From positions 1 to 54,851 of the forward strand of contig SKWC01000131.1 of NCBI GenBank assembly GCA_007129145.1: DNA of 54,851 nt. Reading direction: 5' to 3'. This DNA comes from Rubritepida sp. Its GTDB lineage: Bacteria; Pseudomonadota; Alphaproteobacteria; Acetobacterales; Acetobacteraceae. Made by a program: the position numbers and the translations under genes. Positions 1,026 to 53,225 of this stretch are shown piece by piece (positions within the stretch are counted from its first letter, which is position 1; every line of letters begins with the position of its first letter). The notes under the pieces are model-generated. The model did not search any database and was not told the DNA's origin. It saw nothing but the letters and a program-made list of their open reading frames with translations.

Positions 1026-1055
1026 TTCGAGAAGTCTCGAACCCGGTGGTACACT
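1026..1055 (+). promoter_or_regulatory. Extended -10 promoter with the TTCGAG-N4-CTCGAA palindrome over its -35 region
   Basis: TG-G-TACACT at 1047-1055; palindrome at 1026-1041. Confidence 0.55.
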
Positions 1056-1289
1056 GATCCCCCTACCAAGCCACGGCGATCCCGCCACGCGTTGCCTCAA
1101 CCCACACGAAAGGAGGCCAGCGAGCACCCGCACGCCTAGCTTGGAACGCAACGCGCACACCGTCACAGACAGGAGAGCAACCCATCGACCCGCACCGCAA
1201 GAAGCCTGAAGCCAACGACACCTTCGGCCTTGCCATCCTCATCGTCATCATCACGCTCGTGGTGATGGCACTCACCCGCTAGGAGCAGC

Positions 1290-2789
1290 ATGCCAATCAC
1301 ATCCAACGCCAAGAACCCAACCGACAGGGGCAGCATGAAGGCGCTCATCAACGCCGTCCCTGAAGCCGTTCAGAAACGTGACGTGGTGGTCACCTTCGAC
1401 AAGGAAGGCGTCCTCATTGACGACGGCGATACCGCAACCGGCATGACCCGGGCCAGCTTCAACGCCTGGAAGAAGGCCGGATTCCCGTACCGCAACGGCG
1501 AGCCCAACTTCAACGGCGAACCGGAGGAGCAACGCGAAGAGATCAGGCCGCAACCCAAGCCAGTCTCCAAGCAGAGGGCACGGAGGGTCACCGGCAAGGC
1601 CAAGGCCAAGGCCACGAAGGGCGAACCCGCCATCCCGCAACCCGCCAAGTCCCGAGAGTCCAAGGAAGCGCCAGCCGAGGAGCACGGCAGCATCTTCGAC
1701 TCCTTCGCTGCCGAGGCGTTCGAGATCGACCGCACCGAGAAGACCAGCGAGTCCGGTCGTAACGTCGCCCGCTTCACCAGAGGCGAGATGATCTCCCGCC
1801 TCACCAGCATGTGCAAGGCGTCCCGCATCCCCGTCAAGAAGGCGCTCGAGGAACTCAACATCCGAGCCACCATCGTCGCCGACCAGCACAGCGTGCCGGA
1901 CTTCACGCCCATCACCGAGACCGAGGCGACCATGTCACGCTCCGTGGTCGAAGCGTTCGGTAGCGGCAGCACCTTCCAGCTCGTGAACACCATCAACCCG
2001 GTGACCGGCAAGCCGCTCGTGCGAGACAACGGCGAGCCATTCGAGGTGCCGATCACCGAGGTGACCATCAACAAGCTCTACCCCCTCGTCGAGTTCGTCG
2101 GCGCCAAGGGGTACGACTACGACGAGCTGGCGTCCTTCGCTCACAACAACAGCGAGAAGGTCGTCAAGAAGACGAAGTCCGTCGCCAAGAAGCTCAGCGT
2201 GCCCTTCTCCAAGGTGATGCGGGAGATCACCAGCCTGACCGAGAAGCGCATCAGCCCGCTCGACTCCTCGCTCGGAGAGGTCGAGGTGCAGGCGCCCGAG
2301 GCGATGGTGATGGAGCACCTGAAGCGCCTCCAGGGTGACCCCGTGGAGTCCGAGGTCGTCAGCATCAAGACGGTGCGGACCTGGTACGAGAGCTACTGGG
2401 AGCCGCTGCGTGCCCTGATGAGCCACCTGGGTCGCTTGTACTTCCCGGAGTCGGTGTCGCAGAACTCGGGCGAGGTCAGCGCCGTGTTCGTTCTCGAGCG
2501 CACCATCGGTCAGTTCTTCAACGTCACCGACGACAAGGGCATTCACCGCACTCTCGCCGCCCTGGTCGAGGCTGGCGACATGACCGAGAACCAGGCGAAC
2601 ACCTTCATCGACAGCCACGCTCTGAACCCCGAGACGGGTGACTGGGTGCAGGTCGAGGCCGCTGAGCAGGCGGTCACTGCGGTGAGCGACGACGATGACA
2701 TCTTCGGTGACGAGGATGCCGACATCGACGATCCGCCCTTCGAGGACGACGCCGAGGAGGATGCAGGGGACGACGAGTTCGACGACTGA
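1290..2789 (+). CDS. Hypothetical DNA-metabolism protein with a very acidic C-terminal tail (SSB/recombination-like)
   Basis: 499 aa, AGGAG RBS, tail DDDDIFGDEDADIDDPPFEDD...DDEFDD. Confidence 0.6.
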   Translation: MPITSNAKNPTDRGSMKALINAVPEAVQKRDVVVTFDKEGVLIDDGDTATGMTRASFNAWKKAGFPYRNGEPNFNGEPEEQREEIRPQPKPVSKQRARRVTGKAKAKATKGEPAIPQPAKSRESKEAPAEEHGSIFDSFAAEAFEIDRTEKTSESGRNVARFTRGEMISRLTSMCKASRIPVKKALEELNIRATIVADQHSVPDFTPITETEATMSRSVVEAFGSGSTFQLVNTINPVTGKPLVRDNGEPFEVPITEVTINKLYPLVEFVGAKGYDYDELASFAHNNSEKVVKKTKSVAKKLSVPFSKVMREITSLTEKRISPLDSSLGEVEVQAPEAMVMEHLKRLQGDPVESEVVSIKTVRTWYESYWEPLRALMSHLGRLYFPESVSQNSGEVSAVFVLERTIGQFFNVTDDKGIHRTLAALVEAGDMTENQANTFIDSHALNPETGDWVQVEAAEQAVTAVSDDDDIFGDEDADIDDPPFEDDAEEDAGDDEFDD

Positions 2790-2830
2790 CGCCCTCCGCT
2801 GTGACGGCCCCGTCGTAGACTCCATCTAGC

Positions 2831-3208
2831 ATGCCTGAGCATCGGACGTTCCCGAAGCCGACGAAGAAGGTGAAGGCGAAGACCAGCGAGCGCCTGAACC
2901 ACAACCACAAGACCCACTCACGCTCGAAGATCTACCGCTTCGTCTCGAAGCCGACGTACCTGGCCGGTCTCGCTGCCGGTCAGGGGCGTCGAGGAACCCA
3001 GCCGCATTGTGAGCGGTGCGGGCAGAACAAGGCCACCCAGATTCATCATCCGGGTGGCCGCTCTGGTCCTAGCTTGATCGAGGCTGAGAACCTCTCAGCG
3101 TTGTGCGGCGACTGCCACACGTGGGTGCATGCGAACCCTGAGGCTGCCTACGCAGCCGGGTGGCTCAAGAGTCGGAACGCACTCGAATCAGACCAATCGA
3201 CAGAGTAA
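2831..3208 (+). CDS. HNH endonuclease
   Basis: CERC...QIHHPGGR...ENLSALCGDCHTWVH motif. Confidence 0.85.
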   Translation: MPEHRTFPKPTKKVKAKTSERLNHNHKTHSRSKIYRFVSKPTYLAGLAAGQGRRGTQPHCERCGQNKATQIHHPGGRSGPSLIEAENLSALCGDCHTWVHANPEAAYAAGWLKSRNALESDQSTE

Positions 3209-3560
3209 TCATGCCGACGTGCATGAACGCCTGATGCAGGCGCAGGGGCGAGTTGAGTCCGGTGTCGAACGCCAGGCTCAGCATCGCCCCTAGCGCGTAC
3301 AGAACCAGGCCGACCGTGACCCAGTTCCTATGCTGCGGGTACACGATGCGTCGCCACGCCGCGAGCAGGGCGACGTGAACGCCGAGTACCCGTACGGATG
3401 CTAGCAGTATCCAGCTCGGCTCCCCGAACCCGTTCCTCACGAGCGGTGCGAGCTGGTCGATGAAGTACAGCGTCATGGCTCCGGCAGCGAACATGGCGAT
3501 GAAGACAGCGATCCGGGCACCTGAGCTGCGGGGTTGCATCTGCTGCAACATCGTGCTCAT
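3165..3560 (-). CDS. Multi-pass membrane protein
   Basis: About four hydrophobic segments; overlaps the upstream holin-like gene by 4 nt. Confidence 0.65.
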   Translation of the reverse strand: MSTMLQQMQPRSSGARIAVFIAMFAAGAMTLYFIDQLAPLVRNGFGEPSWILLASVRVLGVHVALLAAWRRIVYPQHRNWVTVGLVLYALGAMLSLAFDTGLNSPLRLHQAFMHVGMITLSIGLIRVRSDS

Positions 3561-3896: not shown

Positions 3897-4301
3897 TCAG
3901 CCGGACATGCGCGAGAGGAAGGCATCAAGCTCAGGGTCCTCCTCTCTGGCCTTCTCCACGCCCTGCTCAACAGATGCGCGGGTGATGACGGGTGCGTCTT
4001 CGAGATTGCTCAAATCGAGAATGTCCCCGGTGGTGTCGGTTTCGCCCCGGTGGCGGAACATGCCGACCAGGTTGTAGGCACGCACGACGAGGTCGATGCC
4101 GTAGCTGACAATCTCGTAGGCCGTCGGCCCAAGGATGGTTCGGAGCCGCTCAAGCACCTCGGACAGGAGGCCGAGGACGAGTTCCTTCTTCTTCGGCCCC
4201 GGTGTGTCCGGGGAGGTGATGCTCTCGACGGTGGCTACCGCCATCTGGATCATCGGGATCAGCTTGAGGATCAGACCGAAGTTGCGGACGACTGCAAGCA
4301 T
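3897..4301 (-). CDS. Hypothetical protein (possibly lysis-associated)
   Basis: GAAGGGAG RBS; 134 aa with a GPKKKELVL motif. Confidence 0.7.
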   Translation of the reverse strand: MLAVVRNFGLILKLIPMIQMAVATVESITSPDTPGPKKKELVLGLLSEVLERLRTILGPTAYEIVSYGIDLVVRAYNLVGMFRHRGETDTTGDILDLSNLEDAPVITRASVEQGVEKAREEDPELDAFLSRMSG

Positions 4302-4653: not shown

Positions 4654-5694
4654 ATGGCACGCGGAATCCCAAGATCAGGAGGCACCAGCGACGTTGCCCC
4701 CCTCACCGTCAAACGCCTCAAGGGCGTACCCCTTGAGCGCCTCACCGCCTTCCGCATGGAACGCGAACGCGAAGACCGGAAGACCGGTGAGAAGTACGAC
4801 GTTGTCCAGGTCGTGCTCGGCTTCGCCTTCAACAGCGGCCACGTCCAACGCAGCGCCGACGGCGAACCCGTGCTCGACGACCAGGGCAACACCCAGGCGC
4901 ACATGATCCACGACGGCTTCGTGACCCTCAGCGGCCACGCCAAAGCCAACCTCCCCACCATCCTCCGAGCGCTCGGCTTCGACGACGACCGGTTCATGGA
5001 CCGGGAAGAGGGCGGACTCACCAGCGACGCCGCCGAAAGCATCGAGGTCGAGTTCGGCAAGAACGGCCTCGGCCACGACTACCGAGGCAAGGACTGGGAT
5101 GACCTGCCCTTCTACGTCGTCGGCGGCAAGGAGCGCAAGGGCGAGGTCGAGGTGCCCATCACCTCGTTCAAGATGCTCGGGTACGAGCTGGTCGGTCGCC
5201 GCTGCGACATGGTGCTGACCATCGACAAGAACGGGTACAACCGCATCGACTCCTACATCCCGATGGAGGACCCCGACCCCCTCACCGACACGCCCCCGAA
5301 GCCGAAAGCCAAGGGACTGCCCGGTGAGCAGCGTGACCCCGAACCGTTCCTTGACGACAAGGGCATCGCCGAGCAGCAGGCCAACCGAGCGCTTGCCCCC
5401 ATGCTCCAGCCGAACGAGGGCGAGCCTGAACCCGAGACGAAGCGAGCGGCCTGGACCACGAAGCGTCTCCAAGAGGCGAACATCCCGGCCAGCGCCCGGA
5501 TTCAGGTGCTCCGTGCCCTCACGGGTGACGACAGCATCGACTCCATCCACGGCATCACGGTCGAGCAAGCCAAGGCCGTGAAGGAGATGTTCGACGCCGA
5601 TCCCGCCAACCTGGTCCAGGCGTACGAGCACGTCATGGACTCCACCGAACCCCCCGTCGCCGATGACGACGATGACTTCGAGGATGACATCTGA
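4654..5694 (+). CDS. Putative single-stranded DNA-binding protein
   Basis: Beta-rich N-terminal domain (LVGRRCDMVLTIDKNGYNRIDSY), Pro-rich linker, acidic tail DDDDDFEDDI; replication context. Confidence 0.5.
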   Translation: MARGIPRSGGTSDVAPLTVKRLKGVPLERLTAFRMEREREDRKTGEKYDVVQVVLGFAFNSGHVQRSADGEPVLDDQGNTQAHMIHDGFVTLSGHAKANLPTILRALGFDDDRFMDREEGGLTSDAAESIEVEFGKNGLGHDYRGKDWDDLPFYVVGGKERKGEVEVPITSFKMLGYELVGRRCDMVLTIDKNGYNRIDSYIPMEDPDPLTDTPPKPKAKGLPGEQRDPEPFLDDKGIAEQQANRALAPMLQPNEGEPEPETKRAAWTTKRLQEANIPASARIQVLRALTGDDSIDSIHGITVEQAKAVKEMFDADPANLVQAYEHVMDSTEPPVADDDDDFEDDI

Positions 5695-7017: not shown

Positions 7018-7290
7018 ATGTCAGACGACCCACGCCCCGTCCCCAGGGAGAAGCTCGAGATCAGGCTGACCGCCATGCCGAACGACGACAGGCCGCTCGC
7101 TCACTACGCTGGCTACCAGAACTTCTTCGTCCACGTGCGCATCGGCCACATCGGACCCTGGAAGAACACTGGCTCCATCACCCTGCACACGTCAGCTTTC
7201 AGGTACATCCTCAAGGGCGACGTGAACGTGACGCTACCCCTGGTTGAACTCCATCAGGTATTGGACGACGAAGCGAAGCGGAGCCGCTGA
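7018..7290 (+). CDS. Hypothetical protein
   Basis: Fills the operon between coupled genes. Confidence 0.65.
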   Translation: MSDDPRPVPREKLEIRLTAMPNDDRPLAHYAGYQNFFVHVRIGHIGPWKNTGSITLHTSAFRYILKGDVNVTLPLVELHQVLDDEAKRSR

Positions 7291-7940
7291 TGCCCTGGTA
7301 CCGTGGCGGCAAGAGCATCTTCTCCAAGCCCGGCGACAGCCCCGAGGAACGCTCCGTCAAGTCACTGACGAAGGTCATCAGGCGAGCAGCGATCCGTCGC
7401 ATCCTCGCTGGCCGGTACGGTGCCGACGGCATCAGCAGCCTCACCCAGCTCCAGACCATCCTCGCCCAGCAGCACGGCATCACTGCCCACATCATGACCA
7501 TCTCCCGAGACCTCGACGAGATGGGCGCCGTGAAGGTGCAAGACGTGGAGAAGCCCAGCGTGCAGTTCTGGGTGGTGCCCGCCTTCAACCCGAACCTCGA
7601 GAACCTCCGAGAGACGATGGACTCCGAAGCCATCGAGCAGGAGGTGTTCTACAAGCTGACGATGCACGTCATCGACATCTCGATGCTGTACGAGCGCATC
7701 ATCATCATGACCGAGCCGAGAGCCGGGTATCTGGTGGCATACTGGCTGTCCTGGCTGCGATGGCCCGGCATGGTGAGCGTTCAAGAGCAGCTCGATGGCT
7801 GCATCATCCACTGCCTCGATCCCGATCATGCCGAGGGCATCTACCAGATGCTCGTCGGTCACCCGCTCGACCGTGAGGAGGACACTGATGCCGAAGCGGA
7901 AGAAGGAGAGGAAGAGCCTCTTCGGGAACATCACCCGTGA
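7290..7940 (+). CDS. Divergent ArgR (arginine repressor)-family DNA-binding protein
   Basis: wHTH RRAAIRRIL...LQTILAQQHGITAHIMTISRDLDEMGAVKV matches the ArgR SRDL signature; C-terminal domain IIIMTEPRAG...LDGCIIHC follows the ArgR oligomerisation pattern. Confidence 0.85.
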   Translation: MPWYRGGKSIFSKPGDSPEERSVKSLTKVIRRAAIRRILAGRYGADGISSLTQLQTILAQQHGITAHIMTISRDLDEMGAVKVQDVEKPSVQFWVVPAFNPNLENLRETMDSEAIEQEVFYKLTMHVIDISMLYERIIIMTEPRAGYLVAYWLSWLRWPGMVSVQEQLDGCIIHCLDPDHAEGIYQMLVGHPLDREEDTDAEAEEGEEEPLREHHP

Positions 7941-8103
7941 GGAGTTCATGGCCATCACCCCGGAGGACATCGCCGCCTCCCACGCTAGGGACAAGGCGTA
8001 CTTCGATGAGGTCGTCGGCCCTGGCCCGGTCCGGCTCAAGTTCAAGAAGTCTCGAAGGAAGGGGTCGAAGCTGGTACCACGTGCCAAGCGTGCGTCATAC
8101 TGA
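7888..8103 (+). CDS. Small basic hypothetical protein
   Basis: ATG at 7888 after GAGGAGG; MPKRKKERKSLFG. Confidence 0.6.
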   Translation: MPKRKKERKSLFGNITREEFMAITPEDIAASHARDKAYFDEVVGPGPVRLKFKKSRRKGSKLVPRAKRASY

Positions 8104-8944: not shown

Positions 8945-8951
8945 CGCAACA

Positions 8952-8983
8952 TCTACCCCCCTGTCGGTGAACAGGGGGGCAGA
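8952..8983. terminator. 13-bp hairpin upstream of the initiator gene
   Basis: TCTACCCCCCTGT-N6-ACAGGGGGGCAGA. Confidence 0.45.
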
Positions 8984-9054
8984 AGTGACGGTGTGGGAGC
9001 ACCATCGTGGGACAGACGCGACCCACATTGTAGCACCGTCACGGGAAGGCATCA

Positions 9055-9945: not shown

Positions 9946-11851
9946 AGATGGTGATGAGCTGACCGCCGCCATCGCCGCGAAGGACCTGAGCAAACTGATC
10001 GCCGCGCACTACCCTGACTCGAGGGTGGATGTCGGCAAGCCCGGCGTGTACTTCGCTTCGTGGCGGGGGAACACGAACACGCCTGCGCTCTCGTTGTCGA
10101 AGAAGCAGGGTGTGTGGTTGTGGCATGACATGGCGACGGGCGAGGGTGGCAATGCCTTCGACTTCATGGTCAACATCATGGGAATGGGGCGGCAAGAGGC
10201 AGCGATAGGGCTTCTCTCGGAGGCTGGGTACCGCCCAGGAGAGCCTCGAGAGGGTGGGTCGGCCTCCAAGTCCCGGCCACTACCCCCGGAGGCCGTCACG
10301 GCCTTCTCACAGCCTGAGATCGTGCCAATCGCAGCCATGAAGGGGCGCGGTTTCAACAAGCGGATGCTCGAAACGTACCGAATCATCCCCGCACCCGACC
10401 GACCGGACGATGCGCTGATCCCCATCACCAGCCCGGAGGGCGTCATCCTTCAGGTGAAGCGCCGCATCCACAACGCGCAGAAGGGCAAGTACCGCTACGA
10501 GCACGAGGGTTACGGAGGCCCACCGTGGTGCAGCCCAGGCTCCCGGAAGCCGAACGTCTTGTACGTCATCGAGGGGGAGCTGAACGCCATCGTAGCGCAC
10601 GCGTCACTACTGGAGGCCGGTGAGCGCATCGGTGTGATGGGCGTAGCCGGAGCGAAGAACTCCCTGTACGAGGGCCTGTGCATGGGCAAGTCGGTGTTCA
10701 TCTATGCCGACGACGACAAGGCCGGGAAGGAGGCGATGGACGCCTGGAGCGAGGAAGCCAGGAAGCAAGGCGCCCGCAGCGTGCACCGACTCCCACCCCT
10801 GCCGATGGACTTTTGCGACTACGCCGCTCAGCACGGGCGTGAGGCGCTGGCGGCGAAGCTCAGGGAGATGCACCACTTCAGCATCCAGGTGTTCGGGGCA
10901 ATGGATCGCATGGTCGGGTCGTACACGGTTCGAGAACTCGCAAAGAGCGCCGCTCGCTACATCAGCGGCGAGGTCATCAACCCGCTCGGCATCGGCGCCA
11001 TCGACTACGAGACGGGCGGCATGGGTGAGAGCGGCGTCATCGCCATCGGCGCCCTGCCCAGCATCGGCAAGAGCGCCCTGCTCAGGAAAGCGCTGCTCGA
11101 GCACGTGAGGATGGGTGGCACGACCCGGCTGTACAGCCCGGACCAGAGCACGCATGCCATCTACCGCCTGCTCGCCAGCCTACTCAGCGACGTGGGCACG
11201 AAGGAAGCAAGGCAGCGCAACTTCAGCCGAGCGGTACTCGACCGGTACGGCGACCCAGAAGCCGCCATCAAGGCGTGGAAGGACGCGTACGAGTACGTCG
11301 TGATGGAACTGTCGAGCCGCTTCCAGGTCAGCGAGGAGAGCGACCTCACCGAGATCGGCAAGGACATGGAGCGGGCTAGGGATCAGGGCGTCACCATGTT
11401 CGGCGGTGACTACCTTCAGCTCTTCGAGATGGGCGCGTCGTCGCAATGGGAGGGCAACAGCGAGGAGGGTGCGGTGGCGCAGCGCTTCAAGCGCCTCACC
11501 CGCAACCTCGGCGTGCTGTTCGTCTGCGCCGTGCAGCTCGCCAAGTACAAGTTCCCCATGACCCGCAAGAGCGGCATCCCGTTCCCCAGCGACATCGAGG
11601 GCAGCGGCAAGACGTGGCAGGCAGCCGAGATGGCGTTCGGCATCTACAACGACAGCATCTACGGACGCATGTACGCCGGACCGGACACCGACCTGATCGG
11701 TGACCCGCCCGACATCGCACGGCTGTACCTCTGGAAGCACAAGGAAGGCGATCCAGGGTTGGAGTTCAACGTGCTGTGGCACGGTCGCATCGCTGCGTTC
11801 AAGGACCCGAAGCGACCCAAGCTCGAGCACGAGAGAGAGGGCCTGATGTGA
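9938..11851 (+). CDS. DNA primase-helicase (Toprim + DnaB-like SF4)
   Basis: WHDMATGEGGNAFDF, Toprim IEGELN and ADDDKAG, Walker A GALPSIGKS, GDYLQL, SDIEGSG. Confidence 0.9.
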   Translation: MRRDGDELTAAIAAKDLSKLIAAHYPDSRVDVGKPGVYFASWRGNTNTPALSLSKKQGVWLWHDMATGEGGNAFDFMVNIMGMGRQEAAIGLLSEAGYRPGEPREGGSASKSRPLPPEAVTAFSQPEIVPIAAMKGRGFNKRMLETYRIIPAPDRPDDALIPITSPEGVILQVKRRIHNAQKGKYRYEHEGYGGPPWCSPGSRKPNVLYVIEGELNAIVAHASLLEAGERIGVMGVAGAKNSLYEGLCMGKSVFIYADDDKAGKEAMDAWSEEARKQGARSVHRLPPLPMDFCDYAAQHGREALAAKLREMHHFSIQVFGAMDRMVGSYTVRELAKSAARYISGEVINPLGIGAIDYETGGMGESGVIAIGALPSIGKSALLRKALLEHVRMGGTTRLYSPDQSTHAIYRLLASLLSDVGTKEARQRNFSRAVLDRYGDPEAAIKAWKDAYEYVVMELSSRFQVSEESDLTEIGKDMERARDQGVTMFGGDYLQLFEMGASSQWEGNSEEGAVAQRFKRLTRNLGVLFVCAVQLAKYKFPMTRKSGIPFPSDIEGSGKTWQAAEMAFGIYNDSIYGRMYAGPDTDLIGDPPDIARLYLWKHKEGDPGLEFNVLWHGRIAAFKDPKRPKLEHEREGLM

Positions 11852-12955: not shown

Positions 12956-12965
12956 TTGACACCTC

Positions 12966-14333: not shown

Positions 14334-14336
14334 CAG

Positions 14337-15239: not shown

Positions 15240-15240
15240 C

Positions 15241-15369
15241 TCAGTCCCTCCAACGGGTGCGGAACAGGCCGAGGAAGCGCCTATCCCACGTGGTCTTACC
15301 ATCATCCCAGATGACCTCGTTCGACGAGCGCCCAATGAGGCGATTCAAGAACTCTCGAAGTGCCCGCAT
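15241..15369 (-). CDS. 42-aa Trp-rich peptide (not in the ORF track)
   Basis: [42 protein letters not shown] fills the gap between two genes exactly. Confidence 0.55.
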
Positions 15370-15373
15370 CATC

Positions 15374-15925: not shown

Positions 15926-15933
15926 GGGTCAGC

Positions 15934-16200: not shown

Positions 16201-16208
16201 GGTGCCTC

Positions 16209-18432: not shown

Positions 18433-21400
18433 TCGGCCCGGCTCCGCTGTTGGCGCTCCTGATGCTCCCGGTTGAAGTCCAGGTACATCTGCCACTCCTG
18501 AGCGAACTCCCGCTCCAACTCCTCCATCCGCGCCCGGTGCTTGTCCGCCTCATCGAAACGCTGCGCCATCCTCGCCCGATTGAACTTCGTGCGCAACGAC
18601 GACAGCTCCCGGTTCAAGTCTGCTCGAGCGTTCGTCAACTCCCGCCTGATGCCCGCCAGGGGGCCATCCAAGGCGATCACCTGAGGGGAGCGCAGGAAGC
18701 TCGAGAGGACGTTCTCGCGCCACGTCTTGTCCGGCCTGCCGGAGCGGCGCTCGTCGAAGCTGTAGAAGCGCTCAGCGAGTTCTGTCGGCATGGGGGTGGA
18801 CAGGTCCCGGAACATGCTCGGGATGCTGGGGAACAAGCCCGCCAACTCGTTGTTGTTGTCCACCGTGATGCTCTTCTTCACGATACTCGGAGCCATGGTG
18901 TTGAACAGGAACCGCGTCACGTCACGGGCCTTCTCGACGCCCCGAGAGTCGGCATCGAAGACGCGATTGCCGAACTGAGCGCTCAGCGGCGCCTCGTCAT
19001 CGCCGCGCACCATCGCCATGAACACCTCGGCCAACGGCCCCCACACGCCGCCGCCCGCCACGCTCTCCGCGAACGGGTTGCCCTGCCCCCAGTGCCCATC
19101 CCACAACGTCTGCGTCGGGATGAGTTGCGCCATCGGGATGACGCTGACCTTCCGGTCACCTGCCTCATCTCGACGCACCGTGAACGGCATCGGGACGCCC
19201 TGGTCCATCTGCATCCAGTCAGGCGTACCGAGCAGCAGCGCCACCTGATCCTCGATGCTCAGCGACGCGTTCGACATCGCCTCGCTGATGCGGTCCGCTA
19301 CCGCCACGGCACCAGGGCGACGCAGCGCAGCATTCAGCGTGCGGCCAGCCAGGAAGTACGTGAAGCCGGGGAACAGCACCAGGCCATAGTTCTTCAGGCG
19401 CTCCAGCGAGCGGGGCAGCTCCGAGTAGTCGAACACGATCAAGCGAGCGAACTCGGCTGCTTCCTGCTGGATGCGCAACGCCTCATCCGGGGTAGGTGTG
19501 CGGTTCCCCAAGCGCCGCGTGAGGCGGCTCTTCATCTCCGCGTACCCGGCAACCTTCATCCAGTTCTCCGTGAACTGGAAGCCCTCCAGGCCCGCATAGC
19601 GAGCGCGGAACTTGCCGATGCCGGGACGCTGCAAGAAGCCCTCGTACACGTGCGCGATCTGGTCACCGAAGCGCTTGATGCCGCCACCATCGAGGCCGAA
19701 CTCGTCGAGGCGAACACGCCGGAGGCCCTGCACGAAGTCCTGGTACGACAGCGAGCTGGTCTCGAGCGGCATGTGCCGCTTCATCTCCGCGATCAGGTCC
19801 GAGTACCGACCGCGAGCCATGCTGTCGACATCCCCGAACGTCTCGATCAACCGGCGCGTCATCACGAACGGGTTCAAGCCCACCGTCGCCGCCTGGTACA
19901 GGCCACCCATGAAGTTCGCGGCGATGACGTTCGGGCTGGCGAGGAAACCGCCCGTCACCAGGGACCGCAACCGCGTCAGACCAGCCGGTATGTCCTGCGT
20001 GCCGAGCGCCGTGGCTCGCTGAAGCTCCTGCGCCAGGTACGGGTGGATGTACTTCCCGGCGAAGCCGGGGATGACGGTGCCCTCGTCGGCGTACTTCACG
20101 AAGCGCGTACCGAACTCATCCGTGAACGGGCTGTCCCGCACGTAGCCGCGCCTCCGGCCCAGCACCAGGGCGTTCTGAAGCACATCCTGCCTGCTCACCA
20201 CGCGATTCGCAATCGTGGCGCTCTCCGTGATGCTCATCTGCGCCATCGCGTACTCGCCGAGCGCTTCGAGCATCGAGTCGGTCAGCTCCTCGCGCGGATC
20301 GAAGAAGCGCTCACCCATCAAGCGAGGCTGCTCGCTATCGAACCGGGCGGATGCCTGCTCTCGGCGCTTCATGGCCTGCCGGTACGCTGGCACCACCTCG
20401 TCGAGCTTGTGCAGCAGGGAGCGCATCGGCGCGTTGTCGGCGTGCATGGTCTCCAGCATGGTGCGCATCGCTGCCCGCACCCTGGCCGGGTCAGCGCCGC
20501 TCGCCAGCAGGTGATCGGCCATCTTGCTATGGCTCAGCATGAAGCCGCGCCCGCCTCGCGTCATGGCGTTCTTGTACTCCATGATGAGGCGACCCTCGTT
20601 GTCCAGGTTCCGAGCGGCGAGAGCAGGCAAGATGGCGTCCTCGTCCATGAACCGCGACGGAATGATGCGACCGATGCGCAACGCGTCGGTGTACGTCTTG
20701 AAGTCGTTCGGGTCCTGGAAGATGGCGTACGCGCGACGCAGGTGCCCGTTCATCAACCCCTGGAGGTAATCGCCGAGGTCGAGCGCCTGCATACTCGCCA
20801 TGCCGTCGAGCATCTCCGAGAAGGTGATGGGAGCGTCCAGGGCCTCCTGGATGGTCTTGTACTTGCGGCTGTACAGGCGGGCGGCGAGGATGTCCTCAGC
20901 AGTCGCGTTACGGCCCGCCAGAGGCACCTGAAGGTCATTCAGGAACGCCACCGTTCGGGCATCGGACTGAGGCACCGCCTCACGTACCGCCTGGCGTCCG
21001 ATGTCATCGAGCGCCCGACGCGACCCCTCCATCGGGATGCCATCCACGTCTCGAGCCTCGCGAGCGGCGACGCGGCGAGCATCAGCCGCCTGCTTGATCT
21101 GCTCCCTGGCCGTCTTCCGGGCCAGCATCGCAGACCCAAGGTCCTCGATCAGGCTTGCGGTCTGCTCCTGGGCCTCCCGAAGCCACTGACGGCCCGACTC
21201 CGGCACCGTCCACCGGGTCTGCGGCGGGTACGACGCAGTCGGCACCTGCTCAAGCAGCTCCGCTTGTTTCCTGAGGAGCTTCTGAAGACGGCTCTCGACC
21301 TGCATCAAGCGCCCGACCTCACGAGCGCCGCTACCGCCACCCTCAGCGCCCGCACCAATCATGTTCCACATCGCCTGACCGTACGAATCGACGGCCTCCT

Positions 21401-23198
21401 CAAGCTGCTGCATGTTCCGGCGAGCGGCCTTCGTGGTCAGGTCCGGGAAGTTGCGGAACGAGGTGCGCACCGCCGTCGCGAGGGTACCGACGCGCTCCAT
21501 CAAGTCCTCAACCTGACCGGTGTAGGTGCCGATGTTCGAGATGCGCTCCGCTTCGTTGCGGCCAGCGATGCGCTGCATCTCACCCTCGATGGCTGAACGG
21601 TGGGCGAAGCGGCGACGCAGCCGCTCGTTGTTTTCGATAGCCTCACGGGAGATGGTCGAGCGGAGTTTGATGCCCGTCGATTCACCCATCAGCTTCGTGT
21701 AGTCCTCCTTGCTCCGCAGGCCAGCGGCGAGGAGGCGTTGCCATGCCCGGTCCCCGATGGCGGACTCGCCAGTCAGCTCAAGGCCGCGCAGGCGAATCTG
21801 GTTGGAGACGAAGCCGAACCCGCTGGTCTCGAGGCCGAGACGCGCGTCGATCAGGGCGGTGTCGCGCAGGTAGCGGTTGAACACGTCGACCGCTTGACGC
21901 TCGGCCTGCATGATGGTCTGGTCCGTAGCTCCCGCCGCCCGGCGAGCCTGCTGCGCGGCGACGTTCGCCACGTTCTCGCGAGCCTCACGCAGCAGGGGCG
22001 TGCCCGCCGACGCGACCTCGTTCAAGATTTCTCGAAGCGGCTGCCGACCGGCATCATCAGCCCGGTCGATGACCCGGAAGATGTCACCGAACGCACCCGC
22101 CAACTGCTCATCGGCAATGCGGCCAGCCATCCTCGACTCCTCGAGTACGGAGAGGAAGCCGAGGTTCTGGTTCACGTTGTAGGCCTCGCGCTCGATTGCG
22201 TCCCGAACTATCGGCTGTAGACCCTCGAGATTGTTCTTGTACGCGTGCACCTGATCCTCAAGGGTACGAATCCACATCCGCACGATGTCATCCGCGTCGC
22301 TACCGAGGCGCCCCTGCTGGGCACGCTGAAGCATCGTCAGCGCTTCCTCGCTGACTCGACGCCCCTGCTCCTTGCCCATCTGCACGACCTTCAGCATCTC
22401 CGCGCCCATCTCGTTGCCGAAGCGGATGCGGAGCATCTGGCCACGCGGAAGAATCTGGTCGAGCACCTTCGTGGTCTTCTCGCCGAAGCGCTGAATGCCG
22501 AACAGGGTCGAGTCCGGGTTACGGATCAGCCGCGCCAGCGCATCCATCCGAGTGTCCATGAAGTTGCTCAAGTGCTGCGAGCGGCGAGCGACGCCGACCA
22601 CCTCGCGGCCCATGCCAATCGGGGAGATGAAGTGATCCACCCGGTCGCCGAGCCTCGTGAGGTCCTGGATGCCGCTCAGTTTCCCGCCCAGACGCAACCA
22701 AGAGCCGAAGATCAACGGGTCCGCCGTCAGGTCAGCAGCGATGCCCGCCCACTTCGCGACCTGCGGCTCGAAACCGAGCAGGTCGAAAACCTCCTCACCA
22801 CTCGCGGGTCGAGCGGGCACGTCGCCGCCCGGCATGTACTTGCCCCACTCCATACTCTGGAACCGCTGCGTGATGGTCGTCTCGTCATCGAGCGACCCGG
22901 CGATCACCGAGAAGAACACGTCCTGCGGGAGCTGCAACGGCGCCAGGGCCGACGCCACGCCGCGCAGGGCGCCACCGACCGATTCACGCACCGGGGCGGG
23001 CAGGTCGCTGACGAAGCGTGCGATGCCCGTCGGTTCCTCCTCGTCATCCACGCCGCGCATCTGGCGACCGAGCTGCCGGATGGACACGGGACCCGTGAGG
23101 CTCGTGGCGGGGTTGAACACGCCGGGCGTGGCGAGGGTGTGGCCGAGTTCCTGGCCGGTCCTCAGGCTCCTGCCGAGTTGCCGGATGCTAGACGCCAT
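18429..23198 (-). CDS. Large internal virion (ejection) protein
   Basis: 1589 aa, helical, FDYSEL...LFPGFTY motif, located after the SLT-bearing protein. Confidence 0.75.
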   Translation of the reverse strand: MASSIRQLGRSLRTGQELGHTLATPGVFNPATSLTGPVSIRQLGRQMRGVDDEEEPTGIARFVSDLPAPVRESVGGALRGVASALAPLQLPQDVFFSVIAGSLDDETTITQRFQSMEWGKYMPGGDVPARPASGEEVFDLLGFEPQVAKWAGIAADLTADPLIFGSWLRLGGKLSGIQDLTRLGDRVDHFISPIGMGREVVGVARRSQHLSNFMDTRMDALARLIRNPDSTLFGIQRFGEKTTKVLDQILPRGQMLRIRFGNEMGAEMLKVVQMGKEQGRRVSEEALTMLQRAQQGRLGSDADDIVRMWIRTLEDQVHAYKNNLEGLQPIVRDAIEREAYNVNQNLGFLSVLEESRMAGRIADEQLAGAFGDIFRVIDRADDAGRQPLREILNEVASAGTPLLREARENVANVAAQQARRAAGATDQTIMQAERQAVDVFNRYLRDTALIDARLGLETSGFGFVSNQIRLRGLELTGESAIGDRAWQRLLAAGLRSKEDYTKLMGESTGIKLRSTISREAIENNERLRRRFAHRSAIEGEMQRIAGRNEAERISNIGTYTGQVEDLMERVGTLATAVRTSFRNFPDLTTKAARRNMQQLEEAVDSYGQAMWNMIGAGAEGGGSGAREVGRLMQVESRLQKLLRKQAELLEQVPTASYPPQTRWTVPESGRQWLREAQEQTASLIEDLGSAMLARKTAREQIKQAADARRVAAREARDVDGIPMEGSRRALDDIGRQAVREAVPQSDARTVAFLNDLQVPLAGRNATAEDILAARLYSRKYKTIQEALDAPITFSEMLDGMASMQALDLGDYLQGLMNGHLRRAYAIFQDPNDFKTYTDALRIGRIIPSRFMDEDAILPALAARNLDNEGRLIMEYKNAMTRGGRGFMLSHSKMADHLLASGADPARVRAAMRTMLETMHADNAPMRSLLHKLDEVVPAYRQAMKRREQASARFDSEQPRLMGERFFDPREELTDSMLEALGEYAMAQMSITESATIANRVVSRQDVLQNALVLGRRRGYVRDSPFTDEFGTRFVKYADEGTVIPGFAGKYIHPYLAQELQRATALGTQDIPAGLTRLRSLVTGGFLASPNVIAANFMGGLYQAATVGLNPFVMTRRLIETFGDVDSMARGRYSDLIAEMKRHMPLETSSLSYQDFVQGLRRVRLDEFGLDGGGIKRFGDQIAHVYEGFLQRPGIGKFRARYAGLEGFQFTENWMKVAGYAEMKSRLTRRLGNRTPTPDEALRIQQEAAEFARLIVFDYSELPRSLERLKNYGLVLFPGFTYFLAGRTLNAALRRPGAVAVADRISEAMSNASLSIEDQVALLLGTPDWMQMDQGVPMPFTVRRDEAGDRKVSVIPMAQLIPTQTLWDGHWGQGNPFAESVAGGGVWGPLAEVFMAMVRGDDEAPLSAQFGNRVFDADSRGVEKARDVTRFLFNTMAPSIVKKSITVDNNNELAGLFPSIPSMFRDLSTPMPTELAERFYSFDERRSGRPDKTWRENVLSSFLRSPQVIALDGPLAGIRRELTNARADLNRELSSLRTKFNRARMAQRFDEADKHRARMEELEREFAQEWQMYLDFNREHQERQQRSRAE

Positions 23199-27239: not shown

Positions 27240-27522
27240 GCTTCACCTCGAATCGCCCCTGATCTCGGTACTGGAACAACTGCTCGATGGCTTCGCGGAC
27301 ACGCGGGACGATGTCCTCTCGGCACAGCATAGACGATAGCGGCGCTCCCGTCACGAGACCCCTCAGCAGCGCTTCGAGACTTCTCGAACCGGACGAGTCC
27401 TCGAACGCGTCCGACCCCGTGGCCATGATGACCTCCAGCCGGTTACGCATGAACGGGTCAGCCATGAACACCAGCCGGTACGCGTTCTCCCTCGCCTCAG
27501 CCTTGGCGGGCTTGCGCTTCAT
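27229..27522 (-). CDS. Hypothetical protein
   Basis: GGAGG RBS; 97 aa. Confidence 0.6.
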   Translation of the reverse strand: MKRKPAKAEARENAYRLVFMADPFMRNRLEVIMATGSDAFEDSSGSRSLEALLRGLVTGAPLSSMLCREDIVPRVREAIEQLFQYRDQGRFEVKHGH

Positions 27523-34329: not shown

Positions 34330-34415
34330 GATGCGCCTCCCTCATGGGGCGAGTATAGACGACGAGGGGCACCACATGGGCGCCCCTCGAGTTCGAGCAT
34401 TCTTGAACCGCGTCC

Positions 34416-41327: not shown

Positions 41328-43118
41328 TTACCTCCCCGTGCCCCACTGCTTGAAGCGGTCCGAGAACGCCTTGCGGGGCGTGAAGTCGACATCGACGACG
41401 GCGTTCTTGGCCAAGCCCTTCGTGACCATGCTGACCGCGATCTTGAGGGAGTCCCCCACGTCCACCATCCAGTTGTTCCGCTGACGACGCACCATGCGCC
41501 ACGACAGGTTCAGCAGCGTCTTCCTGATCTGCTCGCAGTTCTCCGTCACCATCAGCTTCGGCAACGGCGTCTGCGCGATGAAGTCGTCCTGCACATCTAG
41601 CATCCTCACGAGTTCATCGTACGCCGGGTCGCCTCGAGCGCCCTCGAACAGGTTGTCGCCGAGGACCTCGATGTAGTTGTCCACGATGCGATGCTCGCTG
41701 TCCTTGTCGAACACGCGGGCGTTCATTGCCGGGTCGTAGCCCCAGATGTGCGTCAAGCCGGGGATGCTGAGCTGCTTCGCCTCCACCGCGTTCGCGTAGC
41801 TGCTCTGGCCGCTCTTGACCATCTCGTCGAAGAAGATCAGCGAGTTGGAGCGCTCCAGGTACATTGCGAACGTGATCGCGGTCGGGTGGTCACCGCCGTG
41901 GTCGATGCCGCATACGATGGTATTGCCGGAGCGGGCGATGCGCTCCCGTGGAACCTTGGGAAGGACGTGCCCGCCATGGCTGACAGCCTCGTCGATGTAG
42001 TTGGGTGCTACACGCCCCTCACGCTCGTCCGTGTCGCCATGCTGATGCCGACGGCGCATCTTCGTGTTGGCCATCAGGTAGGAGTTCTCGACGGAGCGGT
42101 GGTCCCGGCTCTCATTCTCGTAGCCGAACGCGTATATGCAGTAGCGTTGCAGAACTAGGCCGACCTCCTTGTCCGGCACCTTCCGACCATCCACCAGCGT
42201 CACGGTGCTGCCCTTGTGCAGCGCCGAGAAGGAGCGCGTGCCGTCCGTGAGTTTCACGATGGCGCCCGCCCGGAAGCGGAAGCGGTCGTGCCGCAGCGTC
42301 TCCGGGTCGACGTTCACCTCTCGGATGCCGACGTTCTCGTTCACCCACTCCTCGCTCGGTGACGGGTACGGGAACGGGATGCCGACGTACCGCGCCCAGG
42401 TGTGATCGTTACCTGCCGGGTTCCAGGTGGCCGACACCACCGTCCAGCCGGGCATCGGGTGGTCCGGTGGGAGCTGCTTCTCGCCCACGCGGTTCAAGGA
42501 ATCTTGAAGAAGAATCTCGTACGCGTCCTGCCACGTCAGCGTCCGGCCAGCGAACGGCGACCAGGTGATCGCCAGCTTCATGCACAGGTCCTTCACCGTC
42601 AGCGTGCGGTGGTAGATCTCCTGCCGCGAGCGCTCCTGCACCATGTCGTGCGCGTCACTGGGAATCTCATCGGCTTCCTCCAGGTGCACGGTGGCGTACT
42701 CCGTGGACTTCAGGACGCGTTCCAGGTCCGTGCGGTCCAGGCCGATGCCGTTCACGACGCTCTGGACGTAGTTGCCGGTCACCGGGTGCGGCTCGGGCGG
42801 GAAGCGGAACACCGCCTCCTGAAGGTTCTCACTGCCGCCGACGCTCTTGTCGAACACAGCGCCAATGCGCTGCCGCAGCTTGTCGATGGTCGAGTCCTTC
42901 AGCGAGACCAGCGTGGCTCTCGCGATCAGGATGTTCGAGCCGGGGTACTCCATGCCCCTACGCCCGAGGCGGTCAACGGCAGCCGTGGACTTCGCGGTGT
43001 TGAACGGCCCCACGAAGCCTAGCTCCGGGAAGTCGTCGTTCACCACGAAGTCGTTGTACTTGAACCTGATCGGGCCGCTAGGCGGCGTCAGGTCAAGCGT
43101 CAGGCTGCGCCTGCGCAC
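41328..43118 (-). CDS. terL: Terminase large subunit
   Basis: Walker A variant GPFNTAKS, Walker B HLEEADE, TWNP, nuclease GIDHGGDHPTA and DVGDSL. Confidence 0.88.
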   Translation of the reverse strand: MRRRSLTLDLTPPSGPIRFKYNDFVVNDDFPELGFVGPFNTAKSTAAVDRLGRRGMEYPGSNILIARATLVSLKDSTIDKLRQRIGAVFDKSVGGSENLQEAVFRFPPEPHPVTGNYVQSVVNGIGLDRTDLERVLKSTEYATVHLEEADEIPSDAHDMVQERSRQEIYHRTLTVKDLCMKLAITWSPFAGRTLTWQDAYEILLQDSLNRVGEKQLPPDHPMPGWTVVSATWNPAGNDHTWARYVGIPFPYPSPSEEWVNENVGIREVNVDPETLRHDRFRFRAGAIVKLTDGTRSFSALHKGSTVTLVDGRKVPDKEVGLVLQRYCIYAFGYENESRDHRSVENSYLMANTKMRRRHQHGDTDEREGRVAPNYIDEAVSHGGHVLPKVPRERIARSGNTIVCGIDHGGDHPTAITFAMYLERSNSLIFFDEMVKSGQSSYANAVEAKQLSIPGLTHIWGYDPAMNARVFDKDSEHRIVDNYIEVLGDNLFEGARGDPAYDELVRMLDVQDDFIAQTPLPKLMVTENCEQIRKTLLNLSWRMVRRQRNNWMVDVGDSLKIAVSMVTKGLAKNAVVDVDFTPRKAFSDRFKQWGTGR

Positions 43119-46179: not shown

Positions 46180-46180
46180 G

Positions 46181-47299
46181 TCACCTGCCCCTGTTCAGGA
46201 ACTTGTTCAGCGCTCGGATGGCCTCACCGTACTCTTCCATCGGAATGCCCCTGCTGCGATCCCAGCCACCAGTCGGGCCTTGCAGGACTTCGAGAAGTCT
46301 CGAACCGTCCCACGGTTGCACGAAGTGGCGACTCGGCGCGTAGAGGGCGCCCTCCTTGCCAACACGATCCCACCATCCGCTGTAGCCCAGGTCGATCATC
46401 GTCGGCATCACCTGAGGCTCAGGAACGTACGTGTACACCATCTCGTACAAGCGACGCGGGTCCAACCGGCCCTCATCCGCGAGACGCGTCACGCCACGCA
46501 GAAACGTCGGGTCAGTCCTCGGGTTATCAGCCAAGTTCGCGACGATGCGCTGCGCCTGCTCAGGGGTGAACGGACCCTGCTCGAAGTCCAGTAGGTTCGC
46601 GCCAGCCACGTATCCCGTCCGCACGTTCGGAGCCGCATCAGGTCGACCGCTACCCCCGCCGAAGAAGCCGGTGTCCTTCGCGGGCGACCCGGCGTAACGC
46701 GCGGCACGCTCAGGGTCCTGCGTGAAGTACCACCCCGGCCCACCACCCGACGAACCAGGTCGAGGCTTGTCGTACACGTAGTTCGTACCGTGATACATCG
46801 GCATCGGCAAGCCATCAGCGCCAGCGATGCTGATGCGACCCAGCGCCCGCAGAGCCGCCCTCGGGATCATCGCCGCCATCTGCGCGAACTGCCCAGGCCC
46901 AGGCTCGAACACGCCCATCGCCGCCTGCGCCGCCAAGCCACGCGCACCCTCGAAGCCCTGCTGAGCCGTCACGTCCCCGTACGTCAGTGAGGGATCGAAC
47001 GCAGGCAAGTCACCCCACGTGCCGGGGTGCGCCAAGATCGCCTGCCAGATGTTCGCCGGGATCGCGTCAGGGTTGCCGTAGTTCGCCGCGACCGGACCGA
47101 GTCGCTCACCAGTCTCCGCAGCCATCTGCCGCCAGCCAGCCAGGAACCGCTGAATCACGTTCCCGCTATCAGTCCGAGGAGCCTCCGCTACCGGGCTTCG
47201 CATCTGGCTGAGGTCGGCGTGCTGGAAAGCCCGCCCATCGTGCTGCCCGCTGGGCGTATGAGTCCCCGTGGGCGGTGGCCGTCGGTCGCGGTCTGCCAT
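46181..47299 (-). CDS. Protein with a C-terminal ADP-ribosyltransferase-like (ART-PolyVal-type) domain
   Basis: PMYHGT...GPGWYFTQDPERAARYA...NVRTGYV..NLLD...GYSG. Confidence 0.7.
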   Translation of the reverse strand: MADRDRRPPPTGTHTPSGQHDGRAFQHADLSQMRSPVAEAPRTDSGNVIQRFLAGWRQMAAETGERLGPVAANYGNPDAIPANIWQAILAHPGTWGDLPAFDPSLTYGDVTAQQGFEGARGLAAQAAMGVFEPGPGQFAQMAAMIPRAALRALGRISIAGADGLPMPMYHGTNYVYDKPRPGSSGGGPGWYFTQDPERAARYAGSPAKDTGFFGGGSGRPDAAPNVRTGYVAGANLLDFEQGPFTPEQAQRIVANLADNPRTDPTFLRGVTRLADEGRLDPRRLYEMVYTYVPEPQVMPTMIDLGYSGWWDRVGKEGALYAPSRHFVQPWDGSRLLEVLQGPTGGWDRSRGIPMEEYGEAIRALNKFLNRGR

Positions 47300-49366: not shown

Positions 49367-49611
49367 TCGTTGACCTCCTCGAAGAGCGGCTGCTCTCCCT
49401 CGAGCCGTGTGGGTTCGAGATTACTTGAACCGGCCTGTGCCTGTACGAACTCGAGCGCGGCGCCGAGGCGGTGCAGTGAGGCGTGAGCAGCGTTGGAGCC
49501 GCCACCGCCGAAGATCGAAGCCTTGGAGGCGGAGAGCGCCCCAATCGAGGCGGCGGCGATTCCGAACGACAGGTCCTCGGCGGTCAGCTTCAGGCGCGGA
49601 TCGTCAGGCAT
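49363..49611 (-). CDS. Hypothetical protein
   Basis: Start MPDDPR at 49611. Confidence 0.6.
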   Translation of the reverse strand: MPDDPRLKLTAEDLSFGIAAASIGALSASKASIFGGGGSNAAHASLHRLGAALEFVQAQAGSSNLEPTRLEGEQPLFEEVNE

Positions 49612-50629: not shown

Positions 50630-50868
50630 TTCCGCGCCTTCACCTGCGTGGTCTTCGAGAAGTCTCGAACCGGGCGCGGCTCAGGCTCAACGGGCGACGC
50701 CACGCGGGGCTGAGGCTCCCTCACTTGACGTACCTGATCCTCAGCTTCCTTCTCCCGAGACAACCGCTCCAGCGCGAGCACCTGAAGCGACACGCCTCTC
50801 TTCGCTGCCTCCACGCGCATGTCACGGTGAAGCTCATCAGACACCTGCACCTTCACCCACTTCGCCAT
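50626..50868 (-). CDS. Ribbon-helix-helix DNA-binding protein
   Basis: ATG at 50868 after GGAGG; MAKWVKVQVSDELHRDMRVEAAKRGVSLQVL. Confidence 0.8.
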   Translation of the reverse strand: MAKWVKVQVSDELHRDMRVEAAKRGVSLQVLALERLSREKEAEDQVRQVREPQPRVASPVEPEPRPVRDFSKTTQVKARK

Positions 50869-50880
50869 CACAAACCTCCG

Positions 50881-51739: not shown

Positions 51740-51769
51740 TTGACAACACCCCCGGTGGTGTGCAACACT
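51740..51769 (+). promoter_or_regulatory. Sigma70-type promoter of the putative ncRNA
   Basis: TTGACA-18 nt-AACACT with extended TG. Confidence 0.6.
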
Positions 51770-51774
51770 TACCT

Positions 51775-52435
51775 CACAACGCACCACGGGCTCCGCGACC
51801 GGAGCACCCGTAGGACCGCCACCATAGGACCGACGTGCACATAAGTGCTACGTGCTGTAAGCGCTCACGTTCGCGTGAGACACCATGGGCTATGTCCTGG
51901 TATCGCACGAAGGCGTCACCCGTGCAATGGTCCTACGGTGTGGTCCTACTCGTGTGTGTGTTGTGTACAGCCTAACCTCACGTTCGACCAGTGCCGCGCG
52001 TGTCTCGGCACGGGTGCACGCCTAGTGTGCCCAGTGGCATTCGGTCGACGATAGCGCGGAGTGTGAGCCGCGCCGATAGTCACCTATTGGGTCGGTGACC
52101 GTCATGCGTAAGCGTGGCGACAATGGATCGCGAGTCCGTCTGCCCAGGCGCCGAGTGTGGGCAAGCGCGGCTAGACCCTAGCATGGGTCGAACGATGGTC
52201 CTTGAATGTTGGCATCCAGCCGGGGCGACAGTTGAACCCATGGCGGGCAACGCGAGTGTGCTCCTCGCGTGATGTGGCCGATTCTCGTTCGGGGTTACAC
52301 ATCAGCACGCCCAAAGGTCAACCGGACCGGTGATGTTCCAACGGTCGCGATGCGGGATACTCGCGGCCACCCTACGTACTACTTCCACAGGCTCAGGCCC
52401 ACGTCACGTGTCAAGCGCGGCGTGGGCCTTCTCTT
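51775..52435 (+). ncRNA. Putative large structured non-coding RNA
   Basis: No credible ORF; nested long-range stems, more than ten hairpins, UUCG and GNRA loops, G.U pairs favouring the + strand; flanked by a promoter and a terminator-like hairpin. Confidence 0.7.
52395..52435 (+). terminator. Intrinsic terminator-like hairpin
   Basis: AGGCCCACGTC...GGCGTGGGCCT followed by TCTCTT. Confidence 0.55.
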
Positions 52436-52475
52436 CCACTCGCTCGCTGATGAGCGGTGGGGAAACGGAGCCACC

Positions 52476-53165
52476 ATGAACACTGCGGCAATCGTTGCAG
52501 GCCTCATTCACGCGTTCGTCAAGAGCGCGGAGGCGATCGGTGCTCAACGCATCGCGTTGGGCGACACGGTGCTCACCCTGTGGAAGCACTTGAGCAAGGC
52601 TGAAACCGCTGAGCGCTTGCGCGACGCGATCCCCGATGAGCGTGCTCGCATGCTCTTGGGTCGCGTCATCACGCCGGGGCTGCTGAACGACTTGGCAATC
52701 GCGGCGTCGACGTTCCGTGAGAACGAGGGTTTGGCACATGGCAATCACATCCTGACGCGCGATGACGTTGCGCGACTCGACGTGAAGCCCGCTGAACTCG
52801 CTGAGATCGCGAGCGCTGCCGCTTCGGGCAAGGTGCGCGTCAAGGACGTGCACGCTGCCACGAAGGGCGGCAAGGGCGGCGAGAAGGCTCTTGCTCGTAT
52901 CCGTCAGACCTTGGCCGCGTCGGATGAACCGGCGCTCACCCCTATCCAGGCCAAGGAGCGTGAACTCGAGCAGCTCGACAAGCGCATCGCCGACCTTCAG
53001 GCCAAGCGCAAGAAGGTCATCGACGACCTCGCGAAGATGCGCGAGGAGCGCGAGGCACAAGCGGAGGTCGACGCCGCCGTCGCCGTCGTGCAAGCGGAGC
53101 GCGTCGAGAAGCCGGTGCGCAAGAACACCACGCGCAAGCCGAGTGAGGCGCGGCTCAGCGCGTAA
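52476..53165 (+). CDS. Early protein with C-terminal coiled coil
   Basis: ATG at 52476 after GGAG; the ORF-track upstream extension is unlikely. Confidence 0.75.
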   Translation: MNTAAIVAGLIHAFVKSAEAIGAQRIALGDTVLTLWKHLSKAETAERLRDAIPDERARMLLGRVITPGLLNDLAIAASTFRENEGLAHGNHILTRDDVARLDVKPAELAEIASAAASGKVRVKDVHAATKGGKGGEKALARIRQTLAASDEPALTPIQAKERELEQLDKRIADLQAKRKKVIDDLAKMREEREAQAEVDAAVAVVQAERVEKPVRKNTTRKPSEARLSA

Positions 53166-53225
53166 GGGATCGGCAATCGGGGCGTCCTGGTTCGAGAGTT
53201 CTCGAACCGGGGCGCCTCACCGCTC

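Follow-up and report, generated by a model that had tools for sequence, protein, structure and literature searches.

A 16-bp palindrome, TTCRAG-N4-CTYGAA, is dispersed as an array through a phage contig of 54,851 nucleotides (SKWC01000131.1, from a bin assigned to Rubritepida sp.; "the window" below is this whole stretch of DNA). The array is real, family-wide and strongly selected, and its general kind is already known from phages but unexplained. Fourteen exact copies were located, at all of the starts given in an earlier note made from the sequence alone, whereas 100 dinucleotide shuffles of the window gave a mean of 0.01 and a maximum of 1, which agrees with the expectation in that note of far fewer than one copy. 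With up to two mismatches allowed, 24 matches were found against 5.2 expected, and in a matrix scan 16 or 17 strong sites stood clear of the background. The one-mismatch copies listed earlier at 3999 and 18613 were confirmed. An additional one-mismatch copy at 41633, absent from that list, probably arose by chance: its spacer consists of G and C alone, and it scores low in the matrix scan.

The sites (which carry no strand) and the genes of three candidate binding proteins are given below. Open reading frames (ORFs) are our own calls, and a few gene starts are approximate.

1026..1041, exact intergenic site, 4 bases past the stop codon of ORF 731-1021 and 248 bases ahead of ORF 1290-2789
1290..2789, forward strand, gene for a 499-amino-acid candidate site-binding protein with a predicted ParB-type DNA-binding domain
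3999..4014, one-mismatch site within ORF 3897-4301 (reverse strand)
7290..7940, forward strand, gene for an ArgR-derived protein, a rival candidate site-binder (Pfam Arg_repressor)
8041..8056, exact site, intergenic, after the ArgR-like gene
10929..10944, two-mismatch site within the primase-helicase gene
15344..15359, exact intergenic site, 14 bases past a stop codon
18253..18268, exact site within ORF 17302-18495 (reverse strand)
18613..18628, weak one-mismatch site within the gene for a 1589-amino-acid virion protein
22021..22036, exact site within the gene for the 1589-amino-acid virion protein
27373..27388, exact site within ORF 27229-27522 (reverse strand)
30698..30713, exact site within the gene for a 991-amino-acid tail (nozzle-like) protein
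34392..34407, exact intergenic site, 8 bases past a stop codon
40807..40822, exact site within the endolysin gene
42493..42508, exact site within the terminase large subunit gene
46289..46304, exact site within ORF 46181-47299 (reverse strand)
49414..49429, exact site within an ORF ending at 49363 (reverse strand)
50654..50669, exact site within a small ORF ending at 50626 (reverse strand)
52476..53165, forward strand, gene for a 229-amino-acid protein, a second candidate site-binder, which has a coiled coil and matches a ParB-type helix-turn-helix weakly
53191..53206, exact intergenic site, 25 bases past the stop codon of the gene for the 229-amino-acid protein

Sequence, selection and spacing of the palindromes

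The palindrome corresponds to an operator of about 16 bp. Its arms are symmetric in 14/14 exact copies and are fixed in sequence outside one variable position. Only a spacer of four bases yields matches, spacers of 0-3 and 5-10 bases giving none, and the spacers are A/T-rich as previously claimed (80% A/T versus 36% for the window). Scanned with the family motif patterns, the remaining 2,407,012 bases of the window's bin (G000) gave no match.

Nine of the 14 exact copies are wholly coding and five are intergenic. The figure of eleven copies inside ORFs in the earlier note holds if the copies at 3999 and 18613 are counted (11/16), but not for the exact set. The coding copies occupy all three codon phases and use rare codons, and the rare codons quoted in the note were correct. 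Its proposed control, a codon-preserving shuffle, was run as 300 within-gene synonymous-codon shuffles and did not reproduce the nine coding copies (mean 0.03, maximum 1), so that selection at the DNA level is well supported, although indirectly. At 42493 the site also appears to carry an amino-acid cost in the terminase, where Q205 stands at a position at which 41/42 homologues have another residue and S207 at one where 36/42 have P (both counted by eye).

At the variable position the two halves of the 14 exact copies are both G-C in seven cases, mixed in six and both A-T in one, and relatives also mix half-site types within single sites. Since the halves vary independently, the pattern is that of a duplex-DNA site for a two-fold symmetric protein and not of a hairpin, and on this sequence pattern a protein dimer very probably binds the palindrome as duplex DNA. 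Binding sites for a symmetric protein, in line with the earlier suggestion of a dimeric or oligomeric one, are well supported, again indirectly, by the independent halves, the spacing, the conservation and the excess of coding sites. It is extremely improbable that the palindromes are RNA or single-strand hairpins, or products of chance or of assembly. Seven of the 14 copies are perfect 6-bp inverted repeats and five follow stop codons, which speaks for hairpins, but six have a mismatched pair at the variable position, which is what independently varying halves would give, the sequence of the arms does not otherwise vary, and the site at 1026, the only one scanned, has no terminator-like signal. 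The half-site counts already contradict a hairpin, and chance is ruled out by the dinucleotide and synonymous-codon shuffles. An assembly artefact is unlikely because contigs from a second sample of the same study (X2) span the sites at 1026, 3999, 46289 and 49414 and, among the differences listed, show no change there.

Homology searches with the window terminase returned 44 homologues, and 13 related loci were fetched. The word or a lineage-specific respelling was found in eight of the 13, which bears out the conservation in relatives that the note had suggested looking for by a matrix scan. In bin G062 there are nine matches, all on two contigs bearing homologues of window genes, and in bin G061 six matches (five distinct), likewise all on contigs with such homologues. 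Loci L011 and L012 have TTAGAG in 8/8 half-sites, and L014 and L015 favour TTTGAG (4/8 half-sites).

Several sites occupy orthologous positions. The window site at 1026 corresponds to G062 C29:22218, that at 8041 to G061 L028:1661, and that at 30698 to G061 L027:598, at the same codons of the tail gene. The junction site at 34392 is kept in G061 with the same spelling and in L011 with the TTAGAG spelling. The two-mismatch copy at 10929 belongs to the site set because G062 has a perfect site at the same codons (C96:5756). At portal residue 177 a site of TTCGAG type is found in L022 and one of TTAGAG type in L011; it is decayed in the window, which has another site 1.1 kb away. The 18253 site is missing at those codons in G061, where a variant site lies about 156 bases off, the 40807 endolysin site is missing at those codons in G061, and the 42493 terminase site in 7/7 related loci covering it. 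Some sites are thus orthologous, while others have been lost and regained nearby.

Relatives were not found in IMG/VR with terminase, capsid, ArgR-like or ORF 1290 queries. Among GenBank phages there was no match for the terminase or portal, and the helicase gave only distant Staphylococcus phage matches. Scanning IMG/VR with a 14-base motif gave 122 loci, nearly all with single copies, a level taken for chance. Four IMG/VR records were searched again, and among them two unrelated viral contigs of 31% GC (L156-L159; G063, G064) hold three and two copies of an almost identical, perfect palindrome flanked by A/T-rich sequence. They were left out of the family, as they share only short tail-fibre-like matches with the window.

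The sites of the window are more evenly spaced than random placement would give. The coefficient of variation (CV) of the gaps is 0.47 for 14 sites, 0.51 for 16 and 0.44 for 17, versus about 0.9 under uniform placement, and the corresponding P values for evenness are 0.0034, 0.0048 and 0.0005. On G062 contig C29 the CV is 0.29 (P 0.015). All 14 gaps on seven related contigs measure 2.5-6.1 kb (P 4e-5), with a statistic that was picked post hoc and a pooled P that overstates independence, because L014 and L015 are related (73%). Locus L021, a duplicate of L011, was excluded from the gap test, and two pairs of coordinates each denote a single site (L022:8645 = L027:4275; L031:4077 = L032:345). 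Selection maintains about one site per 3-4 kb while single sites come and go.

Candidate site-binding proteins and a proposed role

The site-binding protein is probably phage-encoded. Whether it is the product of ORF 1290-2789 is close to an even call. The family of this protein comprises 26 representatives at 50% clustering. The model (mean predicted local distance difference test score 83, predicted template modelling score 0.53) has a 70-residue N-terminal alpha/beta domain, a disordered linker, a helical middle domain (about residues 128-309) and a helical C-terminal domain, and most family members end in an acidic tail. Residues 128-294 align with Spo0J (1vz0) at Z 6.0 and a root-mean-square deviation (rmsd) of 2.9 over 105 residues, below the Z 8 bar, and residues 129-309 with the ParB DNA-binding domain on parS (6s6h) at Z 5.8 and rmsd 3.6 over 110 of 140 residues. 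Raf1 alone aligned over a greater length of the middle domain. Because short helical bundles scored up to 7.0, the ParB-type match is a lead and not proof, and a ParB-type DNA-binding domain is weakly indicated by the model. No CTPase (ParB/Srx) domain is present; the DNA-binding-like domain is preceded by the linker and the 70-residue domain. Residues predicted to read the site fall at about 208-222 and 258-263. The predicted reading helix is similar in the window (EATMSR) and in G062 (EATMTR), two genomes that share the motif and in which the gene is preceded by a site, 248 and about 150 bases upstream, respectively. In ParB and Noc, binding specificity can be switched by four residues (PMC7383237), so that a lineage respelling would be possible.

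Site-binders other than the ORF 1290 protein, taken together, are a possible but rather doubtful explanation. One is the ArgR-derived protein, whose trimer or hexamer could loop several sites. ARG boxes share the layout of inverted arms around four A/T-rich bases (PMC4865122). The protein has a Pfam Arg_repressor domain, a weak match to M. tuberculosis ArgR (E 0.018) and 29 homologues, and a site follows its gene in the window and in G061. Its predicted recognition helix, however, differs between phages that share the motif and carry it on the contig of the gene itself: HIMTISR (window), HIMTISK (G061) and KETVST (G062). Across 30 homologues there is free variation at the residue following the conserved serine, a residue with a base-reading role in ArgR. 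The candidacy put forward in the earlier note fares less well, and this protein is an improbable binder. Its full length is kept across the phage family (30 sequences), and its C-terminal part is strongly conserved, tryptophan-rich and, we presume, unlike the arginine pocket of ArgR.

The 229-amino-acid protein, with a ParB-type helix-turn-helix and a coiled coil, is a slightly less probable binder again. Residues 20-93 align to several ParB structures (Z 3.3-4.9), a feature search placed it in a DUF3102 cluster at 0.88, which is a lead only, and a site follows its gene in the window and in G062. Just two homologues were found, though; identity to its G062 counterpart is 36%, the predicted reading helix being poorly conserved, and the model was built from three sequences (predicted template modelling score 0.47). 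Foldseek with this model gave nothing significant, and a wide search returned only coiled coils. Profile comparison detected no homology between the ORF 1290 and 229-amino-acid proteins, and a functional description of DUF3102 was not found in the literature search. Both proteins lie outside the candidate list of the earlier note, and both have weak matches to ParB-type DNA-binding folds in their models. The ParB-like ORF 43810, which was on that list, was rejected, as the stretch concerned has no Pfam match and is not kept in the counterparts in relatives.

Alternatively, a host protein such as a nucleoid organiser or global regulator could read the sites, with the respelling tracking host shifts. 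In its favour, the phage-encoded site-binders are candidates only, and the three bins holding these phages may all be mis-binned. On the other hand, the word gave 0-3 matches in each of 60 relatives of G000 against 0-2 for a reversed control, in a set that may not include the host, and there were no matches outside the phage contigs of G000, G061 and G062, bins which also may not include it.

We tentatively propose, at somewhat less than even confidence, that the palindrome, which DNA-level selection keeps, is bound by ORF 1290 dimers that would organise the whole genome through bridged neighbouring sites. The dimers would dock on the duplex sites through the ParB-type domain. Without a cytidine triphosphate (CTP) clamp domain, the protein would not move along DNA in the manner of ParB or KorB, and the simplest route to a reach of a few kb would be for a flexibly linked oligomer to bridge neighbouring sites. 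The helical C-terminal domain and the long, flexible linker could let the protein hold or bridge sites a few kb apart. Each site would then reach a few kb, so that additional sites would add little while long gaps would be costly, and with such a reach selection would keep one site per few kb and not a site in a given gene. Compaction, tethering during replication and shielding are candidate gains of a genome organised in this way.

A number of observations weigh against this proposal. Gaps in the window include short ones of 360 (bounded by a weak site), 1240 and 1686 bases as well as one of 6.4 kb, and L014 has no site over 8843-19534 (10.7 kb). Five of the 13 related loci are without sites; four of these are shorter than 4 kb (L013, L016, L017 and L019), and the fifth, L018 (10.6 kb), is the most distant, with 38% terminase identity. 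The ParB matches of ORF 1290, under the Z 8 bar, ranked 8 and 15 among unrelated helical bundles. At E 0.001 Foldseek matched the model to no PDB entry or viral model, and Pfam and PDB profile searches of ORF 1290 gave no ParB match, with no ParB family among the best 25 of 33 Pfam families for the 26 family members and no usable match in Atlas. The pairing of gene and motif was checkable in two genomes only, both with the same spelling, and a search of G061, which is fragmentary, gave no homologue of ORF 1290. The excess of intergenic copies after stop codons also fits a transcription roadblock. A host-encoded binder, which we regard as quite unlikely, would likewise count against the proposal.

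The siteless region of L014 consists of structural genes and follows 9 kb that hold three sites. In the related L015 the portal gene is followed by a site that is missing from L014.

A rival reading is a stoperator- or KorB-like silencing array, in which a phage repressor bound at many places, possibly the ORF 1290 protein itself, blocks transcription genome-wide in a dormant state. All five intergenic exact copies are located 4-100 bases past a stop codon and ahead of the next gene, and intergenic copies are enriched (5/14 versus 7.3% intergenic positions, P 0.002). The conserved sites include several at gene junctions, one of which precedes ORF 1290. Stoperators are scattered over Cluster A mycobacteriophage genomes (PMC9283540), and KorB silences at up to 1.5 kb (PMC11790492). 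Silencing is nevertheless considered unlikely. The window sites are symmetric, while stoperators are described as asymmetric and oriented (PMC4351075), and sites turn over inside genes yet the spacing persists. An integrase, ParA or classical repressor was found neither among the 64 window ORFs nor among 28 ORFs scanned in G062, which include a region missing from the window (both genomes are incomplete, and one G062 ORF was excluded for faulty coordinates).

A further elaboration of the bridging proposal, also unlikely, is that a CTP-independent ParB-type scaffold loops the lattice, that its acidic tail recruits replication or recombination proteins, by analogy with phage single-strand-binding proteins, and that respelling excludes the scaffolds of co-infecting relatives. 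If true, the scaffold would amount to a self-recognising phage equivalent of the proteins that organise chromosomes.

The phage genome and other genes

The window is an entire contig, the largest of a 2.46-Mb bin, and has a lower GC content (64% versus 71%). Contigs of relatives sit in two other bins, one labelled Dehalococcoidia, and the phage contigs are likely mis-binned. The DNA was present in soda-lake and alkali-sediment runs, of which X1 may be the source of the window. Comparisons of GroES and the endolysin were uninformative as host hints. The gene content is podovirus-like, with a SU10-type portal and adaptor, holin, endolysin, primase-helicase and GroES. The putative terminase was assigned from its motifs and position, neither library naming it. 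A recorded contig of 62,026 bases carries the same terminase, so that about 7 kb may be missing from the window, in which no terminal repeat was found.

The GroES co-chaperonin gene (48121-48537) also occurs in L014, L018 and L023. Between the small and large terminase genes (43810-47299) are two large genes with similar-looking N-termini and variable remainders, one with a ParB/Srx-like motif by eye and the other with a weak ART-PolyVal match. G062 has two counterparts with different remainders (C29 4550-8850). These genes look like those of packaged, injected cargo proteins. In L025:1691-5901 (G062 C29 16691-20904), genes for a ubiquitin-like (ThiS) protein, a 672-amino-acid protein, a JAB-like protein (by eye) and a ThiF/E1 protein stand in a row, which falls in the region missing from the window. 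At 4654-5694 a conserved 346-amino-acid protein with an acidic tail and no family match adjoins the exonuclease gene; it is possibly a single-strand-binding or annealing protein.

Comparison with known systems

The closest published likenesses are the KorB operators, treated below, and the dispersed dyad repeats reported in 2015 from Cluster O mycobacteriophages, whose function is unexplained in that report (PMC4351075). In the Cluster O phages as here, a genome-wide palindrome has an A/T-rich spacer, G/C-rich flanks and many intragenic copies which are not tied to promoters, a dimer site is predicted, and neither integrase nor ParAB is seen (here, among the ORFs scanned). The Cluster O repeats are of 17 bp and another sequence, arranged 7-3-7 in place of 6-4-6, and are described as denser at one end of the genome and, for the most part, shared in position by five close genomes (PMC4351075). 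Even spacing, local turnover and lineage respelling distinguish the present array, and no binder is singled out in the Cluster O report. The Cluster O repeats are absent from the host; here the remainder of the three bins, which may not include the host, has none.

KorB and its operator OB on plasmid RK2 also combine a 16-bp operator with a ParB-family protein acting over kilobases, but KorB is described as a CTP-dependent sliding clamp working with KorA on promoters (PMC11790492). ORF 1290 has no CTPase domain, and most sites are inside phage genes. ParB-parS and Noc with its binding sites (NBS) share a palindrome bound by a two-fold symmetric helix-turn-helix dimer (PMC7383237), and prophage N15 shares dispersed centromere sites in a phage (PMC3235114). 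Unlike in these systems, no ParA was seen among the ORFs scanned, the candidate is without a CTPase domain, and the sites tile the genome evenly.

The stoperators of Cluster A phages are likewise many genome-wide sites for one phage protein, but are described as asymmetric, monomer-bound and belonging to temperate phages (PMC9283540); the present sites are symmetric, and lysogeny genes were not found among the ORFs scanned. The arm-spacer layout is shared by ARG boxes, and the window has an ArgR-derived gene, but the TTCRAG arms depart from the E. coli, Bacillus and Streptomyces consensuses given in the source (PMC4865122). The sites here are also single and mostly in genes, and the helix of the ArgR-derived protein fails to follow the motif.

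The literature search, which left subscription papers mostly outside its range, turned up no description of an array that is evenly spaced, respelled by lineage and read by a ParB-type protein lacking the CTPase domain. If such a protein reads the lattice, this would be genome-wide organisation of phage DNA of a kind that the search did not find described. A phage dyad repeat is now paired with even spacing, turnover, an apparent amino-acid cost, respellings and named candidate binders, and the lineage respellings are natural specificity variants that are usable as controls for binding.

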